The translations under genes and the position numbers were made by a program. A stretch of 64,000 bases of DNA, from NCBI GenBank assembly GCA_934179675.1, contig CAKPQS010000001.1, positions 10,154-74,153 on the forward strand, read 5' to 3'. Within the stretch, counting starts at the first letter, position 1, and the number at the start of each line of letters is the position of its first letter. Below are positions 6,128 to 59,251 of this stretch, one piece after another. The stretch comes from an uncultured Bacilli bacterium (lineage in GTDB: Bacteria > Bacillota_I > Bacilli_A > RF39 > UBA660). The notes beneath the pieces were generated by a model. It saw nothing but the letters and a program-made list of their open reading frames with translations, did no database searches and was not told where the DNA came from.

Positions 6128-6541
6128 CTATACTTTACAAAAAGTTTCTTCAGTATTAGACATATTGTATGATAGAACATAACTACCATCAGATTTAACA
6201 TTAACAACAATATTTCCTGTCATATTTTTAGAACAATTAGGATTAACAGGATATTTATCAAAAACACCTTCACTTATAAAAACACTCATTGGTATTACAA
6301 TTACTTTTTCACCATTAAATAAATCAATTTTAACATTATTTCCATTTACATTTAATGTTTTACCCTCATTTTCCGTAATATAAGTTCTAACTGCACTTTT
6401 TATTGTTTCAAGTTGTTCATCATAAAGTTTATGTTTTGCTTCTTTCTGAACGTTATTATAAACAGCAATACCAATAGTACTTAATATTCCAATGATTACA
6501 ATAATCGCTAAAAGTTCAACTAAAGTAAATCCTTTTTTCAT
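6128..6541 (-). CDS. prepilin-type N-terminal cleavage/methylation domain protein (type IV pilin/pseudopilin, ComGC-like)
   Basis: Class III signal MKKGFTLVELLAIIVIIGILSTIGIAV, with the G-FTLVE cleavage/methylation motif and Glu at +5. Confidence 0.7.
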   Translation of the reverse strand: MKKGFTLVELLAIIVIIGILSTIGIAVYNNVQKEAKHKLYDEQLETIKSAVRTYITENEGKTLNVNGNNVKIDLFNGEKVIVIPMSVFISEGVFDKYPVNPNCSKNMTGNIVVNVKSDGSYVLSYNMSNTEETFCKV

Positions 6542-13405: not shown

Positions 13406-15400
13406 ATGAAAAAGAAAAATTTAATTGATACAATTATTATATCATCCTTCTTCTTTATAGAAGAACTTATATTTAAAGCCTTAACAAATAGTTTTGTATT
13501 AGATTATAGTATTTTAAGAATACTTTTATTATCAACTATTTTGGGATTTATAATATCATTTTTAGCAAATTTAACAAATAGTAAAAAAATTAAAATGTTA
13601 ATAATTTTAATACCATGTATATTAGCAACAATATATGCACTTGCTCAATTAGGGTTTATAGCATATTTTGGTATTTACATGAGTACAAATACTGGAGGAC
13701 AATTAGGTGCTGTTAAATCATATATCATTGATTTTATTAAAAGTTTAAAACCAGTATATTATACAATATTAATTCCAATTGTTCCATTAGTAATTTACTA
13801 TAGTATTAAAAAAGTAAATGAACAAGCTAAAATAACGAATAAAGAATTATTTATAAATTTACTTGTACTTGTTACATTATGTTCAACATTTTATGGAACT
13901 GTCAATTTAAAATTTATGCAAAATAAATATCAACCAATATCAAATAAAGAATTATTTAATTATCCATCAAATCCAAGTACAACTGTTAATCAATTTGGTA
14001 TCAATGGATACTTAATATTAGATGTTAAAAGTTTATTTCAAAAAAAAGTTGAATTGACTTATGAAGCACCTAGAGAAACAATAACAGTAACTGAAAAACA
14101 TTTTGATGATACAACATGGAATAAAATAATTGATGAAGAAAAAAATTCAATAAATAATAATTTAAATAATTATTATATTTCTAGAAATCAAACAATAGAA
14201 AATGATTATACTGGATATTTTGAAGGTAAAAACTTAATAATGATTATGCTAGAATCAGTTAATGAAATTGCAATAAATAAAGAATATTTTCCAACCTTAT
14301 ATAAAATTTATTCAGAAGGATGGTCTTGGGAAAATAATTATTCACCAAGAAATACTTGTCCAACTGGTAATAATGAATTTAGTGCTTTAACATCACTATA
14401 TAGTATAAATAACACCTGCGTAGCACGTGATTATAAAAATAATACCTATTTTGAAAGTATGTTCAATTTATTTAAAAATAAAGGATATGATGTTTCTTCA
14501 TATCATGATTATACTGAACAATATTATGAAAGGTCAACATTGCATAAAAATTTAGGAAGTACATATTATGGTGCAAAGGATTTAGAAATCGAAACAAGTC
14601 CAATATACGGAAAATGGCCATCAGATATTGATTTGATTGAAAAGTCATACCCAATATTTAGCTCCAATAAAAAATATTTTGCTTTTTTAACAACAGTTAC
14701 AAGTCATGCACCATATAATAGATCATCTGAATATGGAGATAAATATTTAGATAAATTTGAAGATTTAGATATACCGACTGATATGAAACGATACTTATCA
14801 AAATTAACAGAAGTAGATAAAGCATTAGAAGCATTAATGAAAAAATTAAAACAAAATAATCAATTAAATAATACTGTAATAGTACTATTTGGTGACCATT
14901 ATCCTTATGCAATTGATACTAAAACAATTGGTGAAATGTTAGATTATGATGTTGATAGCGTTGATATAGATAAAACACCATTTGTAATATATAATTCTAA
15001 AATAACACCTGAAGTACATGAAGAATATACAAGTTATATCAACATATTACCAACAATTGCTAATCTATTTGGATTAGATTATGACGCAAGATTATATATG
15101 GGTGAAGATTTATTTAATGATGATTACAAAAGTATCGTAATATTTCCAAATGGTTCATGGAAAAATGAAATAGCATATTACAATGCAAATAATAACAAAA
15201 TAAAATATTTAGGTGAAAATAAATACACAGATGATGAAATAATAAAAATAAATAAAATAGTAACATCAAGATTACAAATGTCGACAACATCTATTAAAAA
15301 GAATTACTTTAATTATTTAAAAGAAAAATATGAAAAATATGGTATAGATAATCCATTAGATCTTTATATCACAGAAACACATGAGGAAGAAGTATCATAA
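13406..15400 (+). CDS. ltaS: LTA synthase family protein (LtaS-type sulfatase/phosphoglycerol transferase)
   Basis: Five N-terminal TM helices followed by an extracellular sulfatase/alkaline-phosphatase-fold domain (MIMLESVNE, NTCPTGNNEFSALTSLY); 664 aa. Confidence 0.8.
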   Translation: MKKKNLIDTIIISSFFFIEELIFKALTNSFVLDYSILRILLLSTILGFIISFLANLTNSKKIKMLIILIPCILATIYALAQLGFIAYFGIYMSTNTGGQLGAVKSYIIDFIKSLKPVYYTILIPIVPLVIYYSIKKVNEQAKITNKELFINLLVLVTLCSTFYGTVNLKFMQNKYQPISNKELFNYPSNPSTTVNQFGINGYLILDVKSLFQKKVELTYEAPRETITVTEKHFDDTTWNKIIDEEKNSINNNLNNYYISRNQTIENDYTGYFEGKNLIMIMLESVNEIAINKEYFPTLYKIYSEGWSWENNYSPRNTCPTGNNEFSALTSLYSINNTCVARDYKNNTYFESMFNLFKNKGYDVSSYHDYTEQYYERSTLHKNLGSTYYGAKDLEIETSPIYGKWPSDIDLIEKSYPIFSSNKKYFAFLTTVTSHAPYNRSSEYGDKYLDKFEDLDIPTDMKRYLSKLTEVDKALEALMKKLKQNNQLNNTVIVLFGDHYPYAIDTKTIGEMLDYDVDSVDIDKTPFVIYNSKITPEVHEEYTSYINILPTIANLFGLDYDARLYMGEDLFNDDYKSIVIFPNGSWKNEIAYYNANNNKIKYLGENKYTDDEIIKINKIVTSRLQMSTTSIKKNYFNYLKEKYEKYGIDNPLDLYITETHEEEVS

Positions 15401-15401
15401 A

Positions 15402-15425
15402 AAACACCAAAAGGTGTTTTTTTTA
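15402..15425. terminator. bidirectional terminator shared by convergent ltaS and sipW
   Basis: AAAAACACCaaaaGGTGTTTTTTTT hairpin with T-run; the sipW stop codon lies inside it. Confidence 0.5.
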
Positions 15426-15905
15426 TAGTAAAATAATAATAAATAAAAAAATTAAAAATATAAAATACTTAAATTTTGATAAAAATGTAATGAAATTACC
15501 TAAACCTTTAAAAACTTTAACAACTGGTCCAACAACTTTTTCTTTTTCGATTTCTGGATCTTCACTTTCATTATTATCACCTTTAGTTAATATAGTTTTA
15601 TCATTTATTTTTATAACACGATGTGCTATGTAACTAGTTTCTCTTTTAAACATTACAACATCATTAACATCGTAATTAGCGTTAACTTTTGCAATAACAT
15701 AATCACCAATATTTATATTTGGAATCATACTCCCAGAAACAATAGTACCCCCTACATAACCAAATAAATTAGGCATTGGATTTTTTAATACTTTTTTTTG
15801 ATAAACTATTGAACCAAAACAAATAATGAAAAATATCAAAAAAACAATTAAAATTTTTTTCAAAATATCAAGTATTTTTTTACCAACAGTCATTATAATC
15901 CTCAC
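15423..15905 (-). CDS. sipW: Signal peptidase I, SipW type (S26B)
   Basis: SGSMIP (catalytic Ser box), HRVI and TKGDNN boxes typical of SipW/archaeal-type SPase I; 160 aa. Confidence 0.75.
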   Translation of the reverse strand: MRIIMTVGKKILDILKKILIVFLIFFIICFGSIVYQKKVLKNPMPNLFGYVGGTIVSGSMIPNINIGDYVIAKVNANYDVNDVVMFKRETSYIAHRVIKINDKTILTKGDNNESEDPEIEKEKVVGPVVKVFKGLGNFITFLSKFKYFIFLIFLFIIILL

Positions 15906-15942
15906 TTTCTTAATACTATCATATCAAAAAAAAGTAAGAATT

Positions 15943-17043
15943 TCAATTCTTCTTACTTTCACTTAACATAATTTTTAATTCTTTTACATCTTTTCCACGA
16001 TAAAATTTAACAGTAATAGTATCTCCTACATTGTATTTATAAAGTAAATATCTAAAATGTGTTGAATCATCAGTATCTACACCATCTATTTGGAAAATAA
16101 CATCTCCATCTTTTAAGCCAGCTTTTGCAGCTACTGAATTATTCTCAACTGATGCAACTATTACACCTTTTTCAATAGAACTATCAATACTAAAATTATA
16201 ACTTCTTTGATAATAAAATTTATTATTAATATAAGCTTCAGCATCTAATGTTTGAATTCCTAAATAAGGTCTTAATATAGTTTCACCTTTTTCAAGTCTA
16301 TCAACATAAGATAAAGCAATTTCAATTGGTATAGCAAACCCCATTCCTTCAATCTTACTTTCAACAAGTTTCATCGAATTAATACCTATTACTTTACCAG
16401 TAGAAGAACATAATGGTCCTCCACTATTTCCTGGATTAATTGCAGTATCTGTTTGAATAACATCCATCAAATATTCAATATTATTAATGGTAGCTGATAC
16501 AGCCCTATTTGATCCAGATACAATACCTCTTGTAACACTGTTCATATATGTTATTCCTTGCGGAGAACCAACTGCAAATACTGTATCTCCTTTATTAATA
16601 GAACTGCTTTCTCCCATTTGAGCAACTAATAGTACACCTTCTTTAGCAATTCTTAAAACAGCTAAATCCGTAACTTCATCAAATCCTAATACGTCTGCAT
16701 CATAAGTTGCTAAATTATTGTTTGTTACTTTAACAGATGTATAATTATCAATAACATGGCAATTTGTCAAAATATAGCCATATTTATCATCTGTTTTATA
16801 AACAAATCCAGATCCAGATCCACTACCACTTTTAGTTTTTGTTTCGATATAGACAGTAGCATCATCAACTAATTCTATAGCTGATTTTAATGTATCAGAT
16901 TCAGTTACACTTACTGTTTTTTCAGTTTTTTCAATTATTTTTTCTTTTCCAATAGTAGTATTATCAAGTAATAATACAGTACCACCGACTCCTAAAAAGA
17001 ATGCAATTAATATTCCAACTAAATATAAATTTTTATTTTTCAT
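15943..17043 (-). CDS. htrA: HtrA/DegP-family serine protease with C-terminal PDZ domain
   Basis: Catalytic triad contexts TNCHVI, DLAVLRI and GNSGGPL; the C-terminal ~90 aa form a PDZ domain. Confidence 0.85.
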   Translation of the reverse strand: MKNKNLYLVGILIAFFLGVGGTVLLLDNTTIGKEKIIEKTEKTVSVTESDTLKSAIELVDDATVYIETKTKSGSGSGSGFVYKTDDKYGYILTNCHVIDNYTSVKVTNNNLATYDADVLGFDEVTDLAVLRIAKEGVLLVAQMGESSSINKGDTVFAVGSPQGITYMNSVTRGIVSGSNRAVSATINNIEYLMDVIQTDTAINPGNSGGPLCSSTGKVIGINSMKLVESKIEGMGFAIPIEIALSYVDRLEKGETILRPYLGIQTLDAEAYINNKFYYQRSYNFSIDSSIEKGVIVASVENNSVAAKAGLKDGDVIFQIDGVDTDDSTHFRYLLYKYNVGDTITVKFYRGKDVKELKIMLSESKKN

Positions 17044-17051
17044 ATTTCCTC

Positions 17052-17978
17052 CTATATTTCTAATATATCAGTCCAGTTTATTGGAAAACCTATCTTTTTG
17101 AGTATTTCTACTATTGACACACTATTTACTTTTCCATTCAAAACATCAAGTTCATAACTTATTTCATGTACTAAATCTCTAAATTCAGTTTCACTTAACA
17201 TACATTTCATTATTAAAACAAGTGCAAATAAGTCATTTTTTCCAAAAATATATTCATCTTCATTCATATCAATGTCAAGTATTTTATGATATTTTGTATC
17301 GGGTATTTTTCTACCAGTTCTATGGTCAAAGAAAATATCTTCATGAGCACAAATATTTCTAAAATTAGCTAGTAAAGATAAATAAATAATCATAGTATCG
17401 CTATTTATATTATAAATATCTGCAATACTTCTTCGATCTTCATCTTTTAAAATGCCATATAATTCAGCAACAATACCAAATGATAAAACTTTTACTAAAA
17501 CCCATAAAGGTATATATCCATAATTTGATACATAATGTGCTGTAGCACGATGCTGAGCTCCATTAATACGAATTTGTCTTTTCATTTTACTAATAATGTC
17601 ATGAACTTGTTTTATTCTACTTGGATCATCAATAAAATTTTCATCATTTAAGTAATCTTTTTCTTTATAACCATATTTTTTAGACATAAAATAACTTATT
17701 ATAGATTTTACATTATTTTCAATAACTAAAATATATTTAAAAAATATGTTACGAATTCTTCGATCAAAAATGAAAATACCATATAATTCATCAAATGTAG
17801 AACCCTTAATAAATTTTTTTTCACCAGGATACATAAGTAATTGTCTGTAGCCATTCAAAAAGAAATAATTTTCTCTAAATAATATACTTTTTGCTTTGTC
17901 AATATCTAAAATAGTTAAACCCTTAGATTTCATTATTTCAATTTGTTCATCAAGAGTTTTGAATGTCTTATCTCTCAT
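17052..17978 (-). CDS. Abi_2 family (AbiD/AbiF-like) abortive infection protein
   Basis: N-terminus KTLDEQIEIMKSKGLTI...AKSILFRENYFFLNGYRQL and FDRRIRNIFFKYILVIENNVKSII match the Abi_2 (PF07751) pattern (QiellksRGL...YYRLsgY...fDrkLRnll). Start at MRDKTF with a GGAGGA RBS. Confidence 0.7.
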   Translation of the reverse strand: MRDKTFKTLDEQIEIMKSKGLTILDIDKAKSILFRENYFFLNGYRQLLMYPGEKKFIKGSTFDELYGIFIFDRRIRNIFFKYILVIENNVKSIISYFMSKKYGYKEKDYLNDENFIDDPSRIKQVHDIISKMKRQIRINGAQHRATAHYVSNYGYIPLWVLVKVLSFGIVAELYGILKDEDRRSIADIYNINSDTMIIYLSLLANFRNICAHEDIFFDHRTGRKIPDTKYHKILDIDMNEDEYIFGKNDLFALVLIMKCMLSETEFRDLVHEISYELDVLNGKVNSVSIVEILKKIGFPINWTDILEI

Positions 17979-18117
17979 AAGTCCTCCATCCCTATTATTA
18001 ATTATATCACAAAATATGAACAAAAAGAATATCATATAAATATAATTTTACACTCAAATATTAAATAGTCAATAAATTGAAAGTAAAAATAATAATTCTT
18101 AATAAAATAAACAAAAA

Positions 18118-18150
18118 ACTGAATATTTAAATTCAGTTTTAAAATTCATT
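18118..18150 (-). terminator. rho-independent terminator after the tasA-like gene pair
   Basis: AACTGAATatttaaATTCAGTT hairpin followed by T-run on the minus strand. Confidence 0.5.
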
Positions 18151-18165
18151 AATTAATGAACATTA

Positions 18166-18762
18166 CTATTTTTGTGTAGCTACAGCTTTTAAATTAAATG
18201 TTATAGTTTTACCAGCATAAGCATTATCAATTGTACTACCATATGGCCATTCCCAGTTAACTGTAACTGAATTAGTCTTAGGATTAGTTTCAGCTGCCCA
18301 ATTGTATGAAGCAACTTCAGCACCTGCACCTGTTAATTCCGCAGTTTCAAGTGTTTTTTCCCCAACTTTGAAAATTAATCCACTAGGAGCATTAGTTAAA
18401 TTATACATAGTAATACTTGCGTCAGTAGCAACACTACTACTAGAAGCATCAACTTTTAAAGTAAAACTTCCTTTAGAACCAGGAGCAAGTTTAGCATTTT
18501 CTTTACCTAGGTTGGCACATCCCTCAGTACAAGATTTTGCTAAATCAACACGATAAGGAGTGGTATCTTTAAATGAAGTTAATCCATCTACAGCATCACC
18601 TTTATCAGCACCTAAAAAGTCAAATGTCCAAGAAGCAGTTAATGTACCTGATACTTTAGCAGTATAAGTTGTTTGGAAAAATGCATAAGTAGCATATCCA
18701 AATGCACATACTGTTACAATAAGACAAGCAACTATAAATACTTTCAATTGATCTTTTTTCAT
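18166..18762 (-). CDS. TasA/CalY (camelysin, peptidase M73)-like secreted protein with a SipW-cognate signal peptide
   Basis: 198 aa. The N-terminal signal ends in YATYAFFQTT...SGTL, like the TasA/CalY 'AFF(N/S)D...GTL' SipW recognition region. Size matches CalY, and the protein has a beta-rich T/S/A composition. Confidence 0.5.
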   Translation of the reverse strand: MKKDQLKVFIVACLIVTVCAFGYATYAFFQTTYTAKVSGTLTASWTFDFLGADKGDAVDGLTSFKDTTPYRVDLAKSCTEGCANLGKENAKLAPGSKGSFTLKVDASSSSVATDASITMYNLTNAPSGLIFKVGEKTLETAELTGAGAEVASYNWAAETNPKTNSVTVNWEWPYGSTIDNAYAGKTITFNLKAVATQK

Positions 18763-18821
18763 TTTCTTCTTCCTTCCTATAATCTTTATAATATGAAAAT
18801 TGATAAAATCAATTTTTCACC

Positions 18822-19340
18822 TTAATTTGTTTTTTGTACAGCATCAACTAGAACATCAAATTTTAAAGTCTTACCAGCAAATGTTGTATCATCAGAACCA
18901 TTAATTGGCCATTCCCAATAAATTTTGTAATTTTTCTGCATACTTGCACCATAAACTATAACTCCACTTATTTTATATGATGCTAAATTAATAGAAACTT
19001 TCTTACTTTCATCTGTATAAAATTTCAAATTATCTGGTATGTTCTCTAAATTAGCAAATGTAACAACGTAATCGATATCAACTTGACTACCTGTACCATC
19101 TAATTCAATATCAAATGTTCCATTAGAGCCTGGGCCTATTTTTCCATTTAACAAATTAGAAGCATTTTTTGCTAAATCTATAGTAAATGATTCCTTATTT
19201 TTATTTACTTTGAAACGCCATTTAGCAACAATAGATGTACTTTTTGCAGTTGAACTTTGAACAAATACAGCATAAGTAACTCCACCTATTAATACTAGAG
19301 CAACTAAAGCAAATATTATAATACTAGTTTTCTTTTTCAT
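18822..19340 (-). CDS. TasA/CalY-like secreted protein (paralogue) with a SipW-cognate signal peptide
   Basis: Start at MKKKTS (GGAGGG RBS). Signal ...GGVTYAVFVQSS, then a beta-rich domain with an ending similar to the paralogue (GKTLKFDVLVDAVQK vs GKTITFNLKAVATQK). Confidence 0.5.
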   Translation of the reverse strand: MKKKTSIIIFALVALVLIGGVTYAVFVQSSTAKSTSIVAKWRFKVNKNKESFTIDLAKNASNLLNGKIGPGSNGTFDIELDGTGSQVDIDYVVTFANLENIPDNLKFYTDESKKVSINLASYKISGVIVYGASMQKNYKIYWEWPINGSDDTTFAGKTLKFDVLVDAVQKTN

Positions 19341-19420
19341 CGTAAACCCTCCGAACCTTACTATATGTATCATTACCGTACAATATAATTCTACCCCAAA
19401 CAAAAACAAAAGTCAATGAA

Positions 19421-20053
19421 TTAATATTTGTTTCTAAAAAATTTTACAATTCCTTTTATAATATTTGCAGAAATTTTAATTTGATACGTTTTATTTTGTA
19501 AATTAGTTCTATCGGTATAATTACTTATAAACCCAAGTTCTAATAGCACACCTGGTTTAGTAATTCTACTATACATATAATAATTGTGTGCAAGAACAGC
19601 TCTTTTATTACCTAATTCTTTTTGTAAAATATTTGCTAAAAATTTATTATTTTCGTTTGTATCATCATAAAAAACTTGTGAACCATTCCATGTATTGTTT
19701 AAAGATGAATTTAAATGAATAGATAAATATATATCACAATCTGATTTATTAATCATAATAGCTCTATTTAATAAATCACTTCTTTTTCGATAATGTGTAG
19801 TACTAGCTAAGTCATAATTTCCATATCTAGTTAAATATACTTTAGCACCTTCCTTTTCCATTTCTTCCTTTAGTGTCATAACAATAGATAAATTAATATC
19901 TGCTTCTTTTATATCTTTATAATTTGAACCACCATCAATACCACCATGTCCAGCATCTAAATAAATAATTTTATTGGTTAATAAACCATCTCTTGATTTA
20001 ACATTAAAAACAAAAAATAAAATCAAAAACAAAAAAACACATATTTTTTTCAA
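19421..20053 (-). CDS. cwlD: N-acetylmuramoyl-L-alanine amidase, CwlD-like (Amidase_3)
   Basis: IIYLDAGHGGIDGG, YLSIHLNS and KPGVLLELGFISN align with the B. subtilis CwlD motifs; 210 aa with an N-terminal signal. Confidence 0.75.
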   Translation of the reverse strand: MKKICVFLFLILFFVFNVKSRDGLLTNKIIYLDAGHGGIDGGSNYKDIKEADINLSIVMTLKEEMEKEGAKVYLTRYGNYDLASTTHYRKRSDLLNRAIMINKSDCDIYLSIHLNSSLNNTWNGSQVFYDDTNENNKFLANILQKELGNKRAVLAHNYYMYSRITKPGVLLELGFISNYTDRTNLQNKTYQIKISANIIKGIVKFFRNKY

Positions 20054-20088: not shown

Positions 20089-21828
20089 TTATTCTAAAAC
20101 AGCTTTAATTCTTCTTATACCAGCACTACTAGCTTCTTCTTTTATAATTTTAAAATGACCTAATTCACTTGTATTTTTAACATGAGGACCACCACATAAT
20201 TCATGTGAAACATTACCGATACTATAAACAGTTACAATATCAGGATATTTTTCAATAAACATACATTCTGCTCCACTTTTAATAGCGTCTTCTTTTGTCA
20301 TTTCTTTAACTGTTACATCAAGGCCATCATTAATCCATTTATTAACTAAATCTTCAACTTTTTTCTTTTCTTCATCACTTAATTTATGATCCAAACTAAA
20401 ATCAAAACGCATTCTTTCAGATGTAATATTTGATCCTTTTTGATGACAATCTTTGCTAACAACTTCTTTTAAAGCAGCATTAAGTAAATGAGTAGCCGTA
20501 TGATATTTAGTTTCTATTTCACCTGTACTTGCAAGGCCACCTTTAAATTTACCAATACTAGCAGTTCTAGAAAGTTCCTGATGTTCTTTAAATTTATTAT
20601 TAAATCCTTGAACATCAACATTCAAACCTTTTTCTTTTGCAAGTTCAACTGTTAATTCAAGTGGAAAACCATAAGTATCAAACAAATGAAATGCTGTAAT
20701 ACCATCTATATCACAATTTTTAGATGCAATTTTTTCAAATTCTTTCAAACCTTTTTCTAAAGTACGACAGAATTTATTTTTCTCATTTTTTAAAACTTCT
20801 AAAACAATATCTTTATTTTCTACAAGTTCATTATAATATTTTGCATATTTATCAATTATTTTAGAAGCAATAACTTCTTCAAAATTAGTATTAATATCAA
20901 TACCCAATTTTTTAGCATGTCTAATAGCACGTCTAATAAGTCTTCTTAAAATATAACCTTGATCAGTATTACTAGGCTTAATACCTGATTTATCTGCAGA
21001 TATAAATACAGCTGTTCTAATATGATCAGCAATAATTCTCATTGATTCTGGATTTTCTTCATATTTTTTTCCAGAAATTTCTTCAATTAAAGAAATTACA
21101 TCTTTCCATACACTTGACTTATAATTATCAGTAACGCCTTCTAAAACAGCAACAACTCTTTCAAGTCCCATACCAGTATCAACATTTTTTTTAGGAAGTT
21201 CACTAATATTACCATTATTATCTTTATAATATTGCATGAAAACATCATTCCATATTTCAACCCAACGATCATCATCTGGATCAAACTTTTCGGGAATCTC
21301 ATCATCTGATCTAAAATAAAACATTTCTGTATCTGGCCCGCATGGTCCAGTTTCACCAGCTATCCAAAAATTATCGCTAATTTTGGCAATTCTTTCATCA
21401 GAAATACCCATTTGTTTCCATAATTCATAAGATTCTTTATCAAACGGTATATATTCATTTCCAGCAAATACAGTAACAGCTAATCTATTAAGTGGAATAT
21501 TAAGAACTTTTGTCAAAAATTCAAAACTCCAACTTATTGCTTCTTTCTTGAAATAATCTCCCAAACTCCAATTACCTAACATTTCAAAAAAAGTATGATG
21601 GTAAGTATCACCAATATTATCCAAATCATTAGTTCTAATACATTTTTGATAATCACAAAGTCTTGTTCCCATAGGATGTGGTTCACCTAATAAATATGGA
21701 ATCAATGGTTGCATTCCTGCTGTATTAAATAATACCGATGGATCATTTTCTGGTACAACAGGACTACTAGGAATTTGAACATGTCCATGACGAACAAAAA
21801 AATCAATATACATATCTTTTAAATTCAT
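20089..21828 (-). CDS. alaS: Alanine--tRNA ligase, compact form (catalytic + tRNA-recognition + minimal editing core; no C-Ala domain)
   Basis: FNTAGMQP, HHTFFEMLGNWSLGDYFK, GMGLERV and FDTYGFPLELT are class II AlaRS motifs. Editing motifs HTATHLL...CHQKG and C-terminal CGGPHV...GIRRIKAV end the protein at 580 aa. Start at MNLKDM with a GGAGGT RBS directly after the T-box terminator. Confidence 0.8.
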   Translation of the reverse strand: MNLKDMYIDFFVRHGHVQIPSSPVVPENDPSVLFNTAGMQPLIPYLLGEPHPMGTRLCDYQKCIRTNDLDNIGDTYHHTFFEMLGNWSLGDYFKKEAISWSFEFLTKVLNIPLNRLAVTVFAGNEYIPFDKESYELWKQMGISDERIAKISDNFWIAGETGPCGPDTEMFYFRSDDEIPEKFDPDDDRWVEIWNDVFMQYYKDNNGNISELPKKNVDTGMGLERVVAVLEGVTDNYKSSVWKDVISLIEEISGKKYEENPESMRIIADHIRTAVFISADKSGIKPSNTDQGYILRRLIRRAIRHAKKLGIDINTNFEEVIASKIIDKYAKYYNELVENKDIVLEVLKNEKNKFCRTLEKGLKEFEKIASKNCDIDGITAFHLFDTYGFPLELTVELAKEKGLNVDVQGFNNKFKEHQELSRTASIGKFKGGLASTGEIETKYHTATHLLNAALKEVVSKDCHQKGSNITSERMRFDFSLDHKLSDEEKKKVEDLVNKWINDGLDVTVKEMTKEDAIKSGAECMFIEKYPDIVTVYSIGNVSHELCGGPHVKNTSELGHFKIIKEEASSAGIRRIKAVLE

Positions 21829-22040: not shown

Positions 22041-22068
22041 ATTATACTATATTTTTTAAAATAATCAA
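22041..22068 (-). promoter_or_regulatory. sigma-A-like promoter for the T-box/alaS transcript
   Basis: TTGATT-16 nt-TATAAT on the minus strand, just upstream of the leader. Confidence 0.4.
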
Positions 22069-24416
22069 ATGTTTTTTTTAATATTTATTATTTCTTTAGC
22101 ATTTTGATATTCATTTTCATTTCCACCATCAAGAATAGCAGATTTTAAACTACCATTGTTATAATAAATATACCAATTACTAGAACATATAGCATAATCA
22201 ACGTTATCAATAATATTCGAATCAATATCTAATAATCCATTTAACATATTAATTCTAGAAATTGCGCTTTTATCATATAAAGTATCAAATGGTGGTATTT
22301 TATAATAAAAATTATTTAAATCTATTGGATTAACCCCATCTCCATACAAACAAATTGCTTTGCCATCATAATTCATTTTAATACCATACTTGCCATATTT
22401 TAAATCAAAAAACATATCATTTTTTACAATATCGCACTTAATATTTCTTGCATATTTACCAGTACTCATAAAAACTTGTTTAATATTTTGACCAGTATTA
22501 TAAGATTTTTTAACTAATAATAAAACATATTTTTTTACAGCTTTATATAAGTATTCATCACTATATTCTTTATAAATAGGATCTCTTAATTCATTTAAGA
22601 AAACAGAATCACCTAAACATACACCAGCAATTCTAGTAACTAAATCATTATTTTTTTTAATAACAATATTAAATCCATTGGGATTAACAAGAGTATACTC
22701 AAATAAATCATCCATATTTCCATAAGCACGCATACAAGATCCTAATTTTTCTCCAGTTACTAACATTTCAGGATCATAAAAATTATCATTACTAATAACT
22801 AAATCATCATAATTAATAGTTAATATAGGAACTGATACATACCTCCTAATAAGCATTTTTTTATAAATATCTAAACATCTTTTTACTCTATCATCAACTT
22901 TACCTACACTTTTTAATGGATAAGGATCACTTATAATCCAGTAAATAGTATCACCAAAAACTCTAGTATATTTACTATATGGATTATTTAATGATTTAGA
23001 TTGCTTTAAATAATCTAAAAACATACTATAAAAATTTTTATTAACATTTTTGTTAATAATATCAAAATTATTAATTAATGCACATAGATTAACATCACTA
23101 TAAGTACAATCACCACTAAAACATACATCTGTTAATTTTAGACTAGTTGTCAAAAATAATAAATCATGTTTATACATAATATCATAAAATAGATCATAAT
23201 TTTTTTTAATACAGCCATCAAATACCTTTTTTAAATCAAGTGAATTAATAATATTTATTAGATCTTTTTTATCAAAAGGAATATTAAAACACTCATCATT
23301 TAATGGCAAATTTTTATAATCATCTACTATAATATCATCATCCAAATTTGAAGTAATAAAAGAACTAACATAACTAAGTATTTTTCCCATCAAATAATTA
23401 ATATTATTAAATTCAATAAATTTGACGCCTTTTACTCCATCTGTTAATAGAGCAAATAAAATATTAGTATCAAAATCTTTATCAACTATATTTTTGGATA
23501 CCAAATATTTTTTTAATTCATTTAAACTATCTTGATTATAAGCTATTTTATAACACATATTTTTCATTTGTTTCTTCTTATTAATTATTCTTTTCATATT
23601 ATAGCTAACTTCAATTTTGAAAGGAAAACCATTACTAAAATTCATTTTTTTATTTTTAAAAATTTCTCTTTTTTTATTATACGAAACATAACATAGTTCT
23701 TTTATTAATGATGTATATTTAGAAAATGTTTTATAATCATTGGATTTATACAAATTAAAATAAATATTAAAAAGTTCTTGTAAATTAGTATATTCTATAT
23801 TATATTTTAAAAATATATTTTTTTTAATATTATCATCTAAATAATTATCAATTTCTACATAAAGTTTTTTATCAGATAAGACTTTATCAAAAGCATGATT
23901 ATTTAATAAATCATTTCGAGTTATATATATAAAATTATAATCAATTAAAGCATTATAAAAATTAATTAAATTTAAAATTTTTGGTTTTTTTAGGGAAAAC
24001 ACATCAAAAAATTTATTTAAAGTTTCATCATCTAATGATTCAATATATTTGTATTCATTGCTTAATATAATTTTAAATCCATATCTTTTAATAAATTCAT
24101 AAGATTTTTTACCATATAATTTTTTTAAGGAATCAGGGGAAAGAAAATTAAGTATATTTTCATATAAAGGATGTTTTTCTAAATCATTAATACTAATTAA
24201 ATTATTCATTATTTTTTCATTAATAATAGCAAAATAAATATTTGTAAATTCAGAATTAAAATTAATTATTTTTTTTAATTTCATTTTATTATTAAAATCT
24301 TTAACATATTCATTAACAATTTCTTTATGATTTAAGAAAAAGCTATCCAAATCATGAATATCACCTTTATATAAGAAAATAGAATTTAAATTATTTATTA
24401 TTTCATCATAATTCAT
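22065..24416 (-). CDS. large hypothetical protein (783 aa), paralogue of the upstream 925-aa protein
   Basis: Long uninterrupted ORF, extremely AT-rich (N/K/I/Y-rich). Shares KMNFSNGFPFKIEVS / NLPLNDE / NPNGFNIVI...GVCLGDSVFLNEL blocks with the 24413-27190 product. Its ATG overlaps the upstream stop (ATGA). Confidence 0.5.
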   Translation of the reverse strand: MNYDEIINNLNSIFLYKGDIHDLDSFFLNHKEIVNEYVKDFNNKMKLKKIINFNSEFTNIYFAIINEKIMNNLISINDLEKHPLYENILNFLSPDSLKKLYGKKSYEFIKRYGFKIILSNEYKYIESLDDETLNKFFDVFSLKKPKILNLINFYNALIDYNFIYITRNDLLNNHAFDKVLSDKKLYVEIDNYLDDNIKKNIFLKYNIEYTNLQELFNIYFNLYKSNDYKTFSKYTSLIKELCYVSYNKKREIFKNKKMNFSNGFPFKIEVSYNMKRIINKKKQMKNMCYKIAYNQDSLNELKKYLVSKNIVDKDFDTNILFALLTDGVKGVKFIEFNNINYLMGKILSYVSSFITSNLDDDIIVDDYKNLPLNDECFNIPFDKKDLINIINSLDLKKVFDGCIKKNYDLFYDIMYKHDLLFLTTSLKLTDVCFSGDCTYSDVNLCALINNFDIINKNVNKNFYSMFLDYLKQSKSLNNPYSKYTRVFGDTIYWIISDPYPLKSVGKVDDRVKRCLDIYKKMLIRRYVSVPILTINYDDLVISNDNFYDPEMLVTGEKLGSCMRAYGNMDDLFEYTLVNPNGFNIVIKKNNDLVTRIAGVCLGDSVFLNELRDPIYKEYSDEYLYKAVKKYVLLLVKKSYNTGQNIKQVFMSTGKYARNIKCDIVKNDMFFDLKYGKYGIKMNYDGKAICLYGDGVNPIDLNNFYYKIPPFDTLYDKSAISRINMLNGLLDIDSNIIDNVDYAICSSNWYIYYNNGSLKSAILDGGNENEYQNAKEIINIKKNI

Positions 24417-59029: not shown

Positions 59030-59069
59030 CTCTATCCAAACATTTGTTCGCTTATGATGTTATTTTTAC

Positions 59070-59160
59070 AATAAAAAATAGTGCACACGTTTAGAGGTTT
59101 TTAAGGCTGCTATCTTCCAATTCTGACCTGTTTCAAACATAATCGTTGCACCAAATAAAA
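59070..59160 (-). ncRNA. ffs: small SRP RNA (4.5S/scRNA, ffs), tentative boundaries
   Basis: The minus-strand sequence ...GGUGCAACG...AACAGGUCAGAAUUGGAAGAUAGCAGCCUUAA...CGUGUGCAC+U6 contains the conserved domain IV (CAGGUCAG...GGAA tetraloop...AGCAGCC) of bacterial 4.5S RNA. A closing helix GUGCAACG/CGUGUGCAC and a U-tail are also present. Confidence 0.55.
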
Positions 59161-59251
59161 TATACAATATTTTAATTTTTTTTTCAAGGTTTTAATGTAT
59201 TTTTTAATCATTTTTATAATAAACATTTAAACAATAATAAATAGCTGTTTT

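Follow-up and report, generated by a model that had tools for sequence, protein, structure and literature searches.

A large family of secreted beta-sandwich proteins encoded near a SipW-type signal peptidase: putative surface-fibre subunits in an uncultured Bacilli bacterium

Bacillus biofilms have TasA-type fibres as their main protein scaffold, and fibres akin to these occur in Clostridium perfringens and in archaea. TasA and BsaA assemble by donor-strand exchange in a process coupled to the signal peptidase SipW; the superfamily that they form is very divergent, with kinship often visible only by iterative profiles or by structure, and its operons frequently combine several paralogues with signal peptidases and adhesin-domain proteins (PMC9674648, PMC11580942, PMC9245690). 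Here we analyse a 64,000-nucleotide stretch of DNA from an uncultured Bacilli bacterium (contig CAKPQS010000001.1, positions 10,154 to 74,153 of the forward strand; hereafter the window), which encodes two paralogous secreted proteins, called A (198 amino acids, aa) and B (172 aa) throughout, and a signal peptidase of the same type as SipW. Profile comparisons place A and B in a separate large family that has no curated model. On balance, we lean towards reading the two proteins as Sec-exported subunits that undergo SipW-type processing and assemble into fibres by donor-strand exchange, in a manner resembling TasA and BsaA and from outside the Peptidase_M73 family.

The locus lies at 15.4-20.1 kb on the minus strand, where a CwlD-like amidase gene, B, A, a hairpin terminator, Abi_2, htrA and the sipW-type gene follow one another; a preliminary description of the window, made from the sequence alone, had given these six genes in this order, and all six are present with the coordinates that it assigned to them. 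Paralogue B is a predicted secreted beta-sandwich protein (18822-19340, minus strand; 174 bits against the family profile) whose open reading frame (ORF) spans 18822-19409, with translation probably beginning at the ATG at 19340, preceded by a GGAGGG ribosome-binding site. Paralogue A (18166-18762, minus strand; 130 bits) has an extra loop with a C-x-x-x-C pair. The two are 30% identical (E 4e-22), which bears out the earlier claim of paralogy; the length of about 195 aa that had been given for both does not hold for B, which the later start reduces to 172 aa. Indeed, a reading of the DNA places the start codons of B, Abi_2 (17978) and sipW (15893) later than the longest ORFs imply, and gene calls on identical metagenomic contigs agree with the later starts. 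The G+C content of the window is ~25%, and the identical loci come from human-gut metagenome assemblies. Exact look-up found no functional name for A, B or Abi_2 in any database source, and for the SipW-type protein an uninformative MGnify tag.

Each paralogue begins with a predicted signal peptide, residues 1-24 in B (MKKKTSIIIFALVALVLIGGVTYA; 19269-19340, minus strand) and residues 1-27 in A (ending CAFGYATYA; 18682-18762, minus strand), and in each cleavage is predicted after T-Y-A. The close family alignment of A shows no variation at Y26 and A27 and almost none at T25. Both signal peptides end in T-Y-A plus an aromatic residue, resembling the T-W-A/A-F of TasA (the slash marks the cleavage site), and the motifs to which the preliminary description had drawn attention (YATYAFFQTT and VTYAVFVQSS) are present in the sequence. 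The mature part of B opens with an N-terminal extension (VFVQSSTAKSTSIVAKWRFKV; 19206-19268, minus strand) that contains the A-K-W-x-F motif and is a candidate donor strand. A lipoprotein reading of A and B was rejected, as neither has a lipobox; LPXTG is absent from all minus-strand ORFs of the window, with a single match in a 56-aa plus-strand ORF. The cysteine pair of A is kept by its orthologues as C-T-x-(x)-C (SCTEGC or SCTN-C; residues 76-80 of A, 18523-18537, minus strand), within a loop that is absent from B; in a gut bacterium that is presumably anaerobic, a secreted protein would not be expected to conserve two cysteines, and either a disulfide or metal binding is possible.

An exhaustive profile search assigned 3,427 clusters at 50% identity to the family of A and B at E<=1e-3, and 1,226 at E<=1e-10. 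A word-indexed search returned only ~25 close relatives for each of the two proteins, none with a Pfam domain, and B used as a query against a genome collection retrieved two loci only. Members are usually ~190-200 aa long; some reach 400-880 aa, and in these long members the family domain is followed by surface-protein domains (Big_2, Flg_new, GLUG or DUF6273). No Pfam or NCBIfam model was found to cover the family in scans of 69 and 83 members, and A and B themselves reach no Pfam or NCBIfam threshold. Among the 83 members, only sub-threshold matches were obtained to TIGR04088 (five members, the most for any NCBIfam model), to the TapA model TIGR04087 (two) and to the BsaA model TIGR04090 (one). 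Plasmids searched by tblastn with a typical member gave no match, and the family profile hidden Markov model retrieved no TasA chain from the PDB sequences, the only match being to 5wox at chance level (E 0.45).

The family has a signature of its own at the predicted cleavage junction. Alignment of 149 sequences to the profile gives the consensus [AT]-[YWF]-[AS] / [KR]-Y-x-[ST]-x-[VIL]-x-G-x3-A-x-[VI]-A-K-W-x-F-K-V, and the junction together with the following ~20 residues is among the most conserved parts of these proteins. In A numbering, the signature positions A27 (-1), Y29 (+2), A43, W45 and F47 are kept in 121, 139, 142, 136 and 145 of the 149 sequences, respectively. A and B are slightly atypical in this respect, having F/V-F where the consensus has [KR]-Y. 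Hydrophobic and polar residues alternate in the segment that follows the junction, as would be expected of an edge strand or a donor strand, and further invariant positions lie in the sandwich (P-G-x-x-G-x-F, W-x-W, D179 and a C-terminal Gln).

Structure prediction, which the preliminary description had suggested as a check for a TasA-like fold, gave an AlphaFold2 model of B from a deeper alignment with a predicted local distance difference test score (pLDDT) of 84.9, and a model of A with a pLDDT of 73. Foldseek ranks the TasA fibre subunit 8aur_A first among the PDB matches of the B model (E 8.6e-4, probability 1.00, template modelling score (TM-score) 0.49), with donor-strand-complemented pilins next: CsuA/B, PapE, FimG, AbpA (7ueg) and the "Hyper2 tube" solved by electron cryomicroscopy (9bab); AbpA stands at rank 7, with a probability of 0.96 and a TM-score of only 0.33. 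The model of B is thus suggestive of a TasA-like fold, at a level that is borderline because the TM-score falls below 0.5. The first ~10 mature residues (25-34 in B) are modelled with low confidence in the monomers. Both models also show a long N-terminal helix, and 13 of the 83 members give weak matches to DUF4179, which we take to be a domain of membrane-anchored anti-sigma-type proteins. These features would suit A and B as membrane-tethered surface proteins in which the N-terminal hydrophobic segment stays uncleaved and serves as an anchor, a state with some likeness to the transient membrane-anchored stage that has been proposed to precede SipW cleavage of BsaA (PMC11580942). We regard a lasting anchor as very improbable, given that a small-x-small junction ([AT]-[YWF]-[AS]) closes the hydrophobic region in nearly all members and that many family operons include a gene for a signal peptidase.

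Comparison with the curated models separates the family from TasA and CalY, to which the preliminary description had likened both paralogues. PF12389 (Peptidase_M73, IPR022121; gathering score 22.5 bits) finds no match in A and one of 14.6-14.8 bits (E 0.03) in B that spans residues 2-46 only, that is, the signal peptide and the first strand; sub-threshold matches to this model occur in only two of the 83 members. TIGR04088, which describes the SipW-cognate signal (cut-off 19 bits), gives 14.2-14.5 bits for B and no match for A. Alignment by hhalign of 69 family members with 42 TasA-family members covers 26 signal-peptide columns (E 1.2e-4, probability 55%), within which the family junction pairs with GGTWA/AF of TasA, whose mature N-terminus at A28 (cleavage after T-W-A) we confirmed from PDB entry 8AUR. 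Once trimmed to their mature domains, the two families align at E 0.24 with a probability of 0.3%, and hhalign against a single TasA sequence likewise detected nothing significant outside the signal peptide. Since PF12389 has no match at threshold and the mature domains show no profile-profile similarity, membership of Peptidase_M73, and with it the TasA/CalY identity, finds no support at the sequence level. Of the SipW-cognate signals proposed earlier, the T-Y-A followed by an aromatic residue is indeed TasA-like, while the TIGR04088 threshold is not reached. The BsaA model TIGR04090 matched neither A nor B at E<=1 and one of the 83 members at E 0.0014; no family column was found to be invariant for Asn or Glu, and only 74 of 149 sequences retain the Lys that precedes P-G. 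In the absence of a conserved Asn-Glu-Lys triad among the invariant columns, an isopeptide lock is not expected.

Genomic context couples the family to SipW-type peptidases. In the window, sipW lies 2.3 kb downstream of A and B on the same strand. In four of four other distant loci (L014, L016, L019 and L023), a SipW-type peptidase adjoins the family genes, together with one to three further paralogues: L016 has the order SipW, major subunit, a 522-aa member, a second SipW and two more members, downstream of GGDEF and two-component genes, and L019 has the order major subunit, SipW and two more members. No SipW was found within 8 kb of a long-form member (L021). A metagenome scan with the signature KIAPGTxGxF yielded 80 loci (32 clusters at 80% identity), many of them from human-gut metagenome assemblies, and the 12 representatives that were checked have 24-30% G+C. 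A SipW-type (TIGR02228-type) gene lies inside the operon in 10 of the ~23 clusters with enough flanking sequence (~43%), and two of these embedded peptidases were verified at 91-96 bits against TIGR02228. Only one SipW-type match (E<=1e-5), in L033, lies more than ~150 bp from the main family gene, and it directly adjoins a further family fragment. The putative substrate genes of the family are thus repeatedly coupled in the genome to a SipW-type peptidase. A second partner is a TIGR04086/DUF3792 membrane-protein gene, which in 50 of the 80 loci (e.g., L093 7423-7785) immediately precedes the family operon in the same orientation and of which there is none in the 64-kb window; in L091 the genes that flank the operon encode adhesin-type proteins, one with a thioester domain and SpaA repeats and the other a MucBP protein. 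Among the distant loci, L014 (CAZTUM010000030.1; two family members beside a SipW-type peptidase) was binned as Muribaculaceae (Bacteroidota), which points to mis-binning of a Firmicute contig or else to horizontal transfer.

We hypothesize that B and A are exported via the Sec pathway and that their signal peptides are removed after T-Y-A by the nearby SipW-type peptidase, which would leave mature proteins of ~148 aa (B) and ~171 aa (A), each with a flexible N-terminal strand (A-x-W-x-F) ahead of an Ig-like/jelly-roll beta-sandwich. Surface fibres would then form by donor-strand exchange, the N-terminal strand of one subunit inserting into the sandwich of the next, and A and B may represent two subunit types, such as a major subunit plus a minor one or an initiator. 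We infer donor-strand polymerisation because the N-terminal strand is conserved and donor-strand pilins are among the structural neighbours of the B model; the paralogues, adhesins and TIGR04086 membrane protein that neighbour family genes also support a fibre, as does the faster evolution of A, B and SipW (54-72% identity between species) relative to the flanking AlaRS, HtrA and Abi_2 (89-91%).

Several results weigh against this assembly. The mature domains are not detectably similar to those of TasA, and none of the curated TasA, BsaA and SipW-signal models reaches its threshold in A or B. No SipW was found within 8 kb in ~13 clusters with adequate flanks. The sipW gene of the window sits with htrA, in a different transcription unit from A and B, and may encode the general signal peptidase of the organism, being the only signal-peptidase-like ORF within the 64 kb; the T-Y-A junction, moreover, also fits the ordinary rule of small residues at -3 and -1. 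The gene arrangement, the operons that lack SipW and the generic fit of the junction would suit the main rival explanation, namely that A and B are ordinary, non-polymerising secreted sandwiches (binding or envelope modules) and that the SipW-type enzyme is the general type I peptidase of this low-GC lineage, sharing an operon for secretion housekeeping with HtrA. This we consider unlikely, as the junction and the 20 residues after it are strongly conserved throughout the family, which is not expected of a generic signal peptide, operons with two to four paralogues and an embedded SipW-type gene make up ~43% of the informative clusters, and the top structural neighbours of the better model (B) are fibre subunits.

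The fibre-subunit reading of A and B leads to a broader and more tentative proposal. The family may constitute a large, unnamed surface-fibre class of low-GC Gram-positive gut bacteria, distinct in sequence from TasA/CalY and from BsaA, of which the window would hold a reduced and dispersed version whose sipW was recruited into an Abi_2-htrA-sipW operon; we raise this possibility because the family comprises at least 3,400 clusters, with human-gut metagenomes supplying most of the sampled loci, and has its own junction signature, a TIGR04086/DUF3792 partner and, in many operons, embedded SipW genes. If this is true, abundant uncultured low-GC gut Firmicutes have a widespread matrix or adhesion system that Pfam and NCBIfam annotation has missed. 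The signature, the TIGR04086 partner and the embedded SipW genes together offer a simple way to find such operons and mark out a small set of proteins for polymerisation tests. For the window alone the result is modest: an over-specific annotation (TasA/CalY, an "inserted" Abi_2 and a link to spores, the last two taken up below) is corrected, and no new mechanism emerges.

The predicted transcriptional layout of the locus is amidase / B-A / terminator / Abi_2-htrA-sipW / terminator. A terminator-like hairpin with a U-tract follows A (18116-18139, minus strand; RNA fold -12.7 kcal/mol, z -3.69, with none of 200 shuffles folding as well), in agreement with the terminator placed earlier between the paralogues and Abi_2, and another follows sipW (15399-15422, minus strand; -11.3 kcal/mol, z -4.75), where it is common to sipW and to a convergent LtaS-like sulfatase gene. 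On this layout B-A and Abi_2-htrA-sipW would be separate transcription units. A consensus terminator scan found neither, because it demands G-C pairs and the hairpins are AT-rich. B has a sigma-70-like promoter match of its own; such matches are no commoner here than in shuffled sequence.

The peptidase itself (15423-15893, minus strand; 156 aa) is a SipW-type, that is, archaeal/ER-type (endoplasmic reticulum-type), signal peptidase I: it scores 61.5 bits against TIGR02228 (cut-off 51.85), as its earlier naming implied, and has the motifs SGSM (in SGSMIP), AHR (in IAHRV) and GDNN and a C-terminal hydrophobic segment. Against NF046067, the equivalog model of Bacillus SipW, it reaches 53.2 of the 190 bits needed, and by these profile scores it is of the same type as SipW without an ortholog-level match. 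Upstream of it lie htrA (15943-17043, minus strand), which encodes a membrane-anchored HtrA/DegP-type serine protease (Trypsin_2 E 3.3e-31, PDZ_2 E 1.9e-17; 249.6 bits against TIGR02037, below the subfamily cut-off), and Abi_2 (17052-17978, minus strand), the first gene of the unit, whose stop is only 8 nucleotides ahead of the htrA start. The Abi_2 protein (AbiD/F-like, 308 aa) matches PF07751 over profile positions 2-183 of 184 (136.6 bits, E 1.6e-39; gathering score 25.6).

The amidase gene (19421-20053, minus strand) encodes a CwlD-like N-acetylmuramoyl-L-alanine amidase with an N-terminal hydrophobic segment, recognized by Amidase_3 (130.5 bits, E 8.7e-38). Its best NCBIfam match by far is the CwlD equivalog TIGR02883, which it matches over the full model at 175.3 bits, below the cut-off of 221.55. 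Further sporulation genes lie nearby, at 7.5-9.4 kb: spoIID (above its cut-off) and a spoIIID-like gene, both of which had been noted before, and a spoIIQ-like gene. TasA, moreover, was first described as a spore-associated protein (CotN), and in one metagenomic cluster (L093) a SleB-like Hydrolase_2 gene lies upstream of the family operon. These observations could be read to mean that A and B are spore-associated proteins (of coat, crust or appendage) made during sporulation and functionally tied to the amidase. We think this improbable. The amidase adjacency is limited to the clade of the window, with a homologue in one of the 80 metagenomic loci, 5 kb away, and the Hydrolase_2 adjacency to one cluster; what usually neighbours the family is instead SipW, an adhesin or the TIGR04086 membrane protein. 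If the mother cell exported A and B through Sec, they would reach the intermembrane space or the cell exterior and not the coat, and the promoter match at B is sigma-70-like, though no more than shuffled sequence would give. The spore link that the preliminary description had drawn through cwlD is accordingly weak, and a general link of the family to peptidoglycan hydrolases was rejected, each case being confined to one lineage. The amidase is probably a neighbour and not a functional part of the A/B system.

No HtrA or Abi_2 homologue was found in the 80 metagenomic family loci, so these genes are not part of the usual family operon, and the adjacencies of HtrA, Abi_2 and amidase are peculiar to the clade of the window. 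Within that clade the arrangement is stable. Close relatives, in which A is 41-57% identical, keep the order amidase-B-A-Abi_2-HtrA-SipW, and in related species (loci L007/L010) identity to the window is 90% for the neighbouring alanyl-tRNA synthetase (AlaRS), 91% for HtrA, 89% for Abi_2, 82-83% for the amidase, 70-72% for B, 69% for SipW and 54-57% for A. The fast-evolving genes of the cluster are thus A, B and SipW, with A the fastest; within-species alleles of A and B show scattered polymorphisms only and are not decisive. Abi_2, which had been taken for an insertion between the paralogues and sipW, occupies the same position in L007, L010 and L015 and, at 89% identity, is conserved like HtrA and AlaRS; a recent insertion was therefore rejected in favour of a stable resident. 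Such conservation and an apparent first place in an operon are unusual for a supposed phage-defence gene, normally variable and mobile. The locus has gained other genes in L007/L010: an IS605 OrfB/TnpB-like gene separates A from Abi_2, sipW is followed by an IS3-type transposase, and alaS and the amidase have a pair of AbiEii genes between them (L007 8793-9941; L010 11450-12669; L007/L010 5132-6495), with the cluster order otherwise unchanged.

Several neighbouring features deserve mention in their own right. The gene convergent with sipW (13406-15400, plus strand) encodes a membrane-anchored sulfatase-family protein, presumably LtaS-like in architecture; L003, a metagenomic copy, has this gene divided between two ORFs. 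Upstream of the amidase, AlaRS (20089-21828, minus strand; tRNA-synt_2c plus tRNA_SAD) is only ~579 aa long and of equal length in all related contigs; bacterial AlaRS usually has ~870 aa, and the C-terminal domain is thus apparently missing. Beyond it, the ORF at 22065-24416 (minus strand) and the next upstream ORF (783 aa and, in L001, ~925 aa) have no recorded Pfam match and sit where G+C falls to 14-20%. A small protein with a type IV pilin/pseudopilin-like N-terminus (6128-6541, minus strand; GspG and prepilin models at E ~1e-8, below cut-off) adjoins mreB, also present in the window, and spoIIID; type IV pilus proteins of C. perfringens are reported to aid secretion of BsaA oligomers (PMC11580942). 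A small bacterial signal recognition particle RNA (59065-59162, minus strand) is the sole Rfam match at gathering score in the window.

TasA, BsaA and AbpA are the analogues that have been studied by experiment. Among these, the tapA-sipW-tasA operon of Bacillus subtilis (8AUR) resembles the locus in placing an archaeal/ER-type peptidase close to small, paralogous secreted beta-sandwich proteins. A and B share with TasA signal peptides that end in T-[WY]-A plus an aromatic residue, and 8aur_A is the best match of the B model. Unlike TasA, they have no M73 match past the signal peptide, and their predicted mature forms are smaller (~148-171 aa vs 234). After the junction, the family continues with [KR]-Y...A-K-W-x-F, whereas TasA has A-F-N-D...G-T-L-D-L. 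The locus also differs from the Bacillus operon in having no TapA-like gene and in keeping sipW in the separate Abi_2-htrA-sipW unit.

The sipW-bsaA-bsaB-bsaC operon of C. perfringens likewise couples SipW to several small paralogous matrix proteins (PMC7395162, PMC11580942). BsaA-type proteins are remotely related to TasA, donor-strand exchange has been proposed for them, and adhesin/SpaA neighbourhoods and paralogues are reported for the superfamily, which as published comprises 2,172 proteins; the divergence of the A/B family and the content of its operons match these published features, and we draw the parallel on that basis. The BsaA system differs in that its model TIGR04090 is unmatched by A and B, in that the A/B family has no evident Asn-Glu-Lys triad and in that the locus has no BsaC-like von Willebrand A gene. 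The archaeal AbpA (7UEG; PMC9245690), a small jelly-roll subunit that loses its signal peptide by cleavage and has a donor strand, likewise resembles A and B as they are read here, and only structure or profile-profile methods reveal its kinship with TasA; it differs in being archaeal and in having no dedicated peptidase beside abpA. As a kind of system, a SipW-type peptidase with small paralogous beta-sandwich matrix or fibre proteins is therefore already known. What is new here is that the substrates come from a large family without a Pfam or NCBIfam model, with its own junction signature and a TIGR04086 partner, and that in the clade of the window sipW has moved into a conserved Abi_2-htrA-sipW unit.

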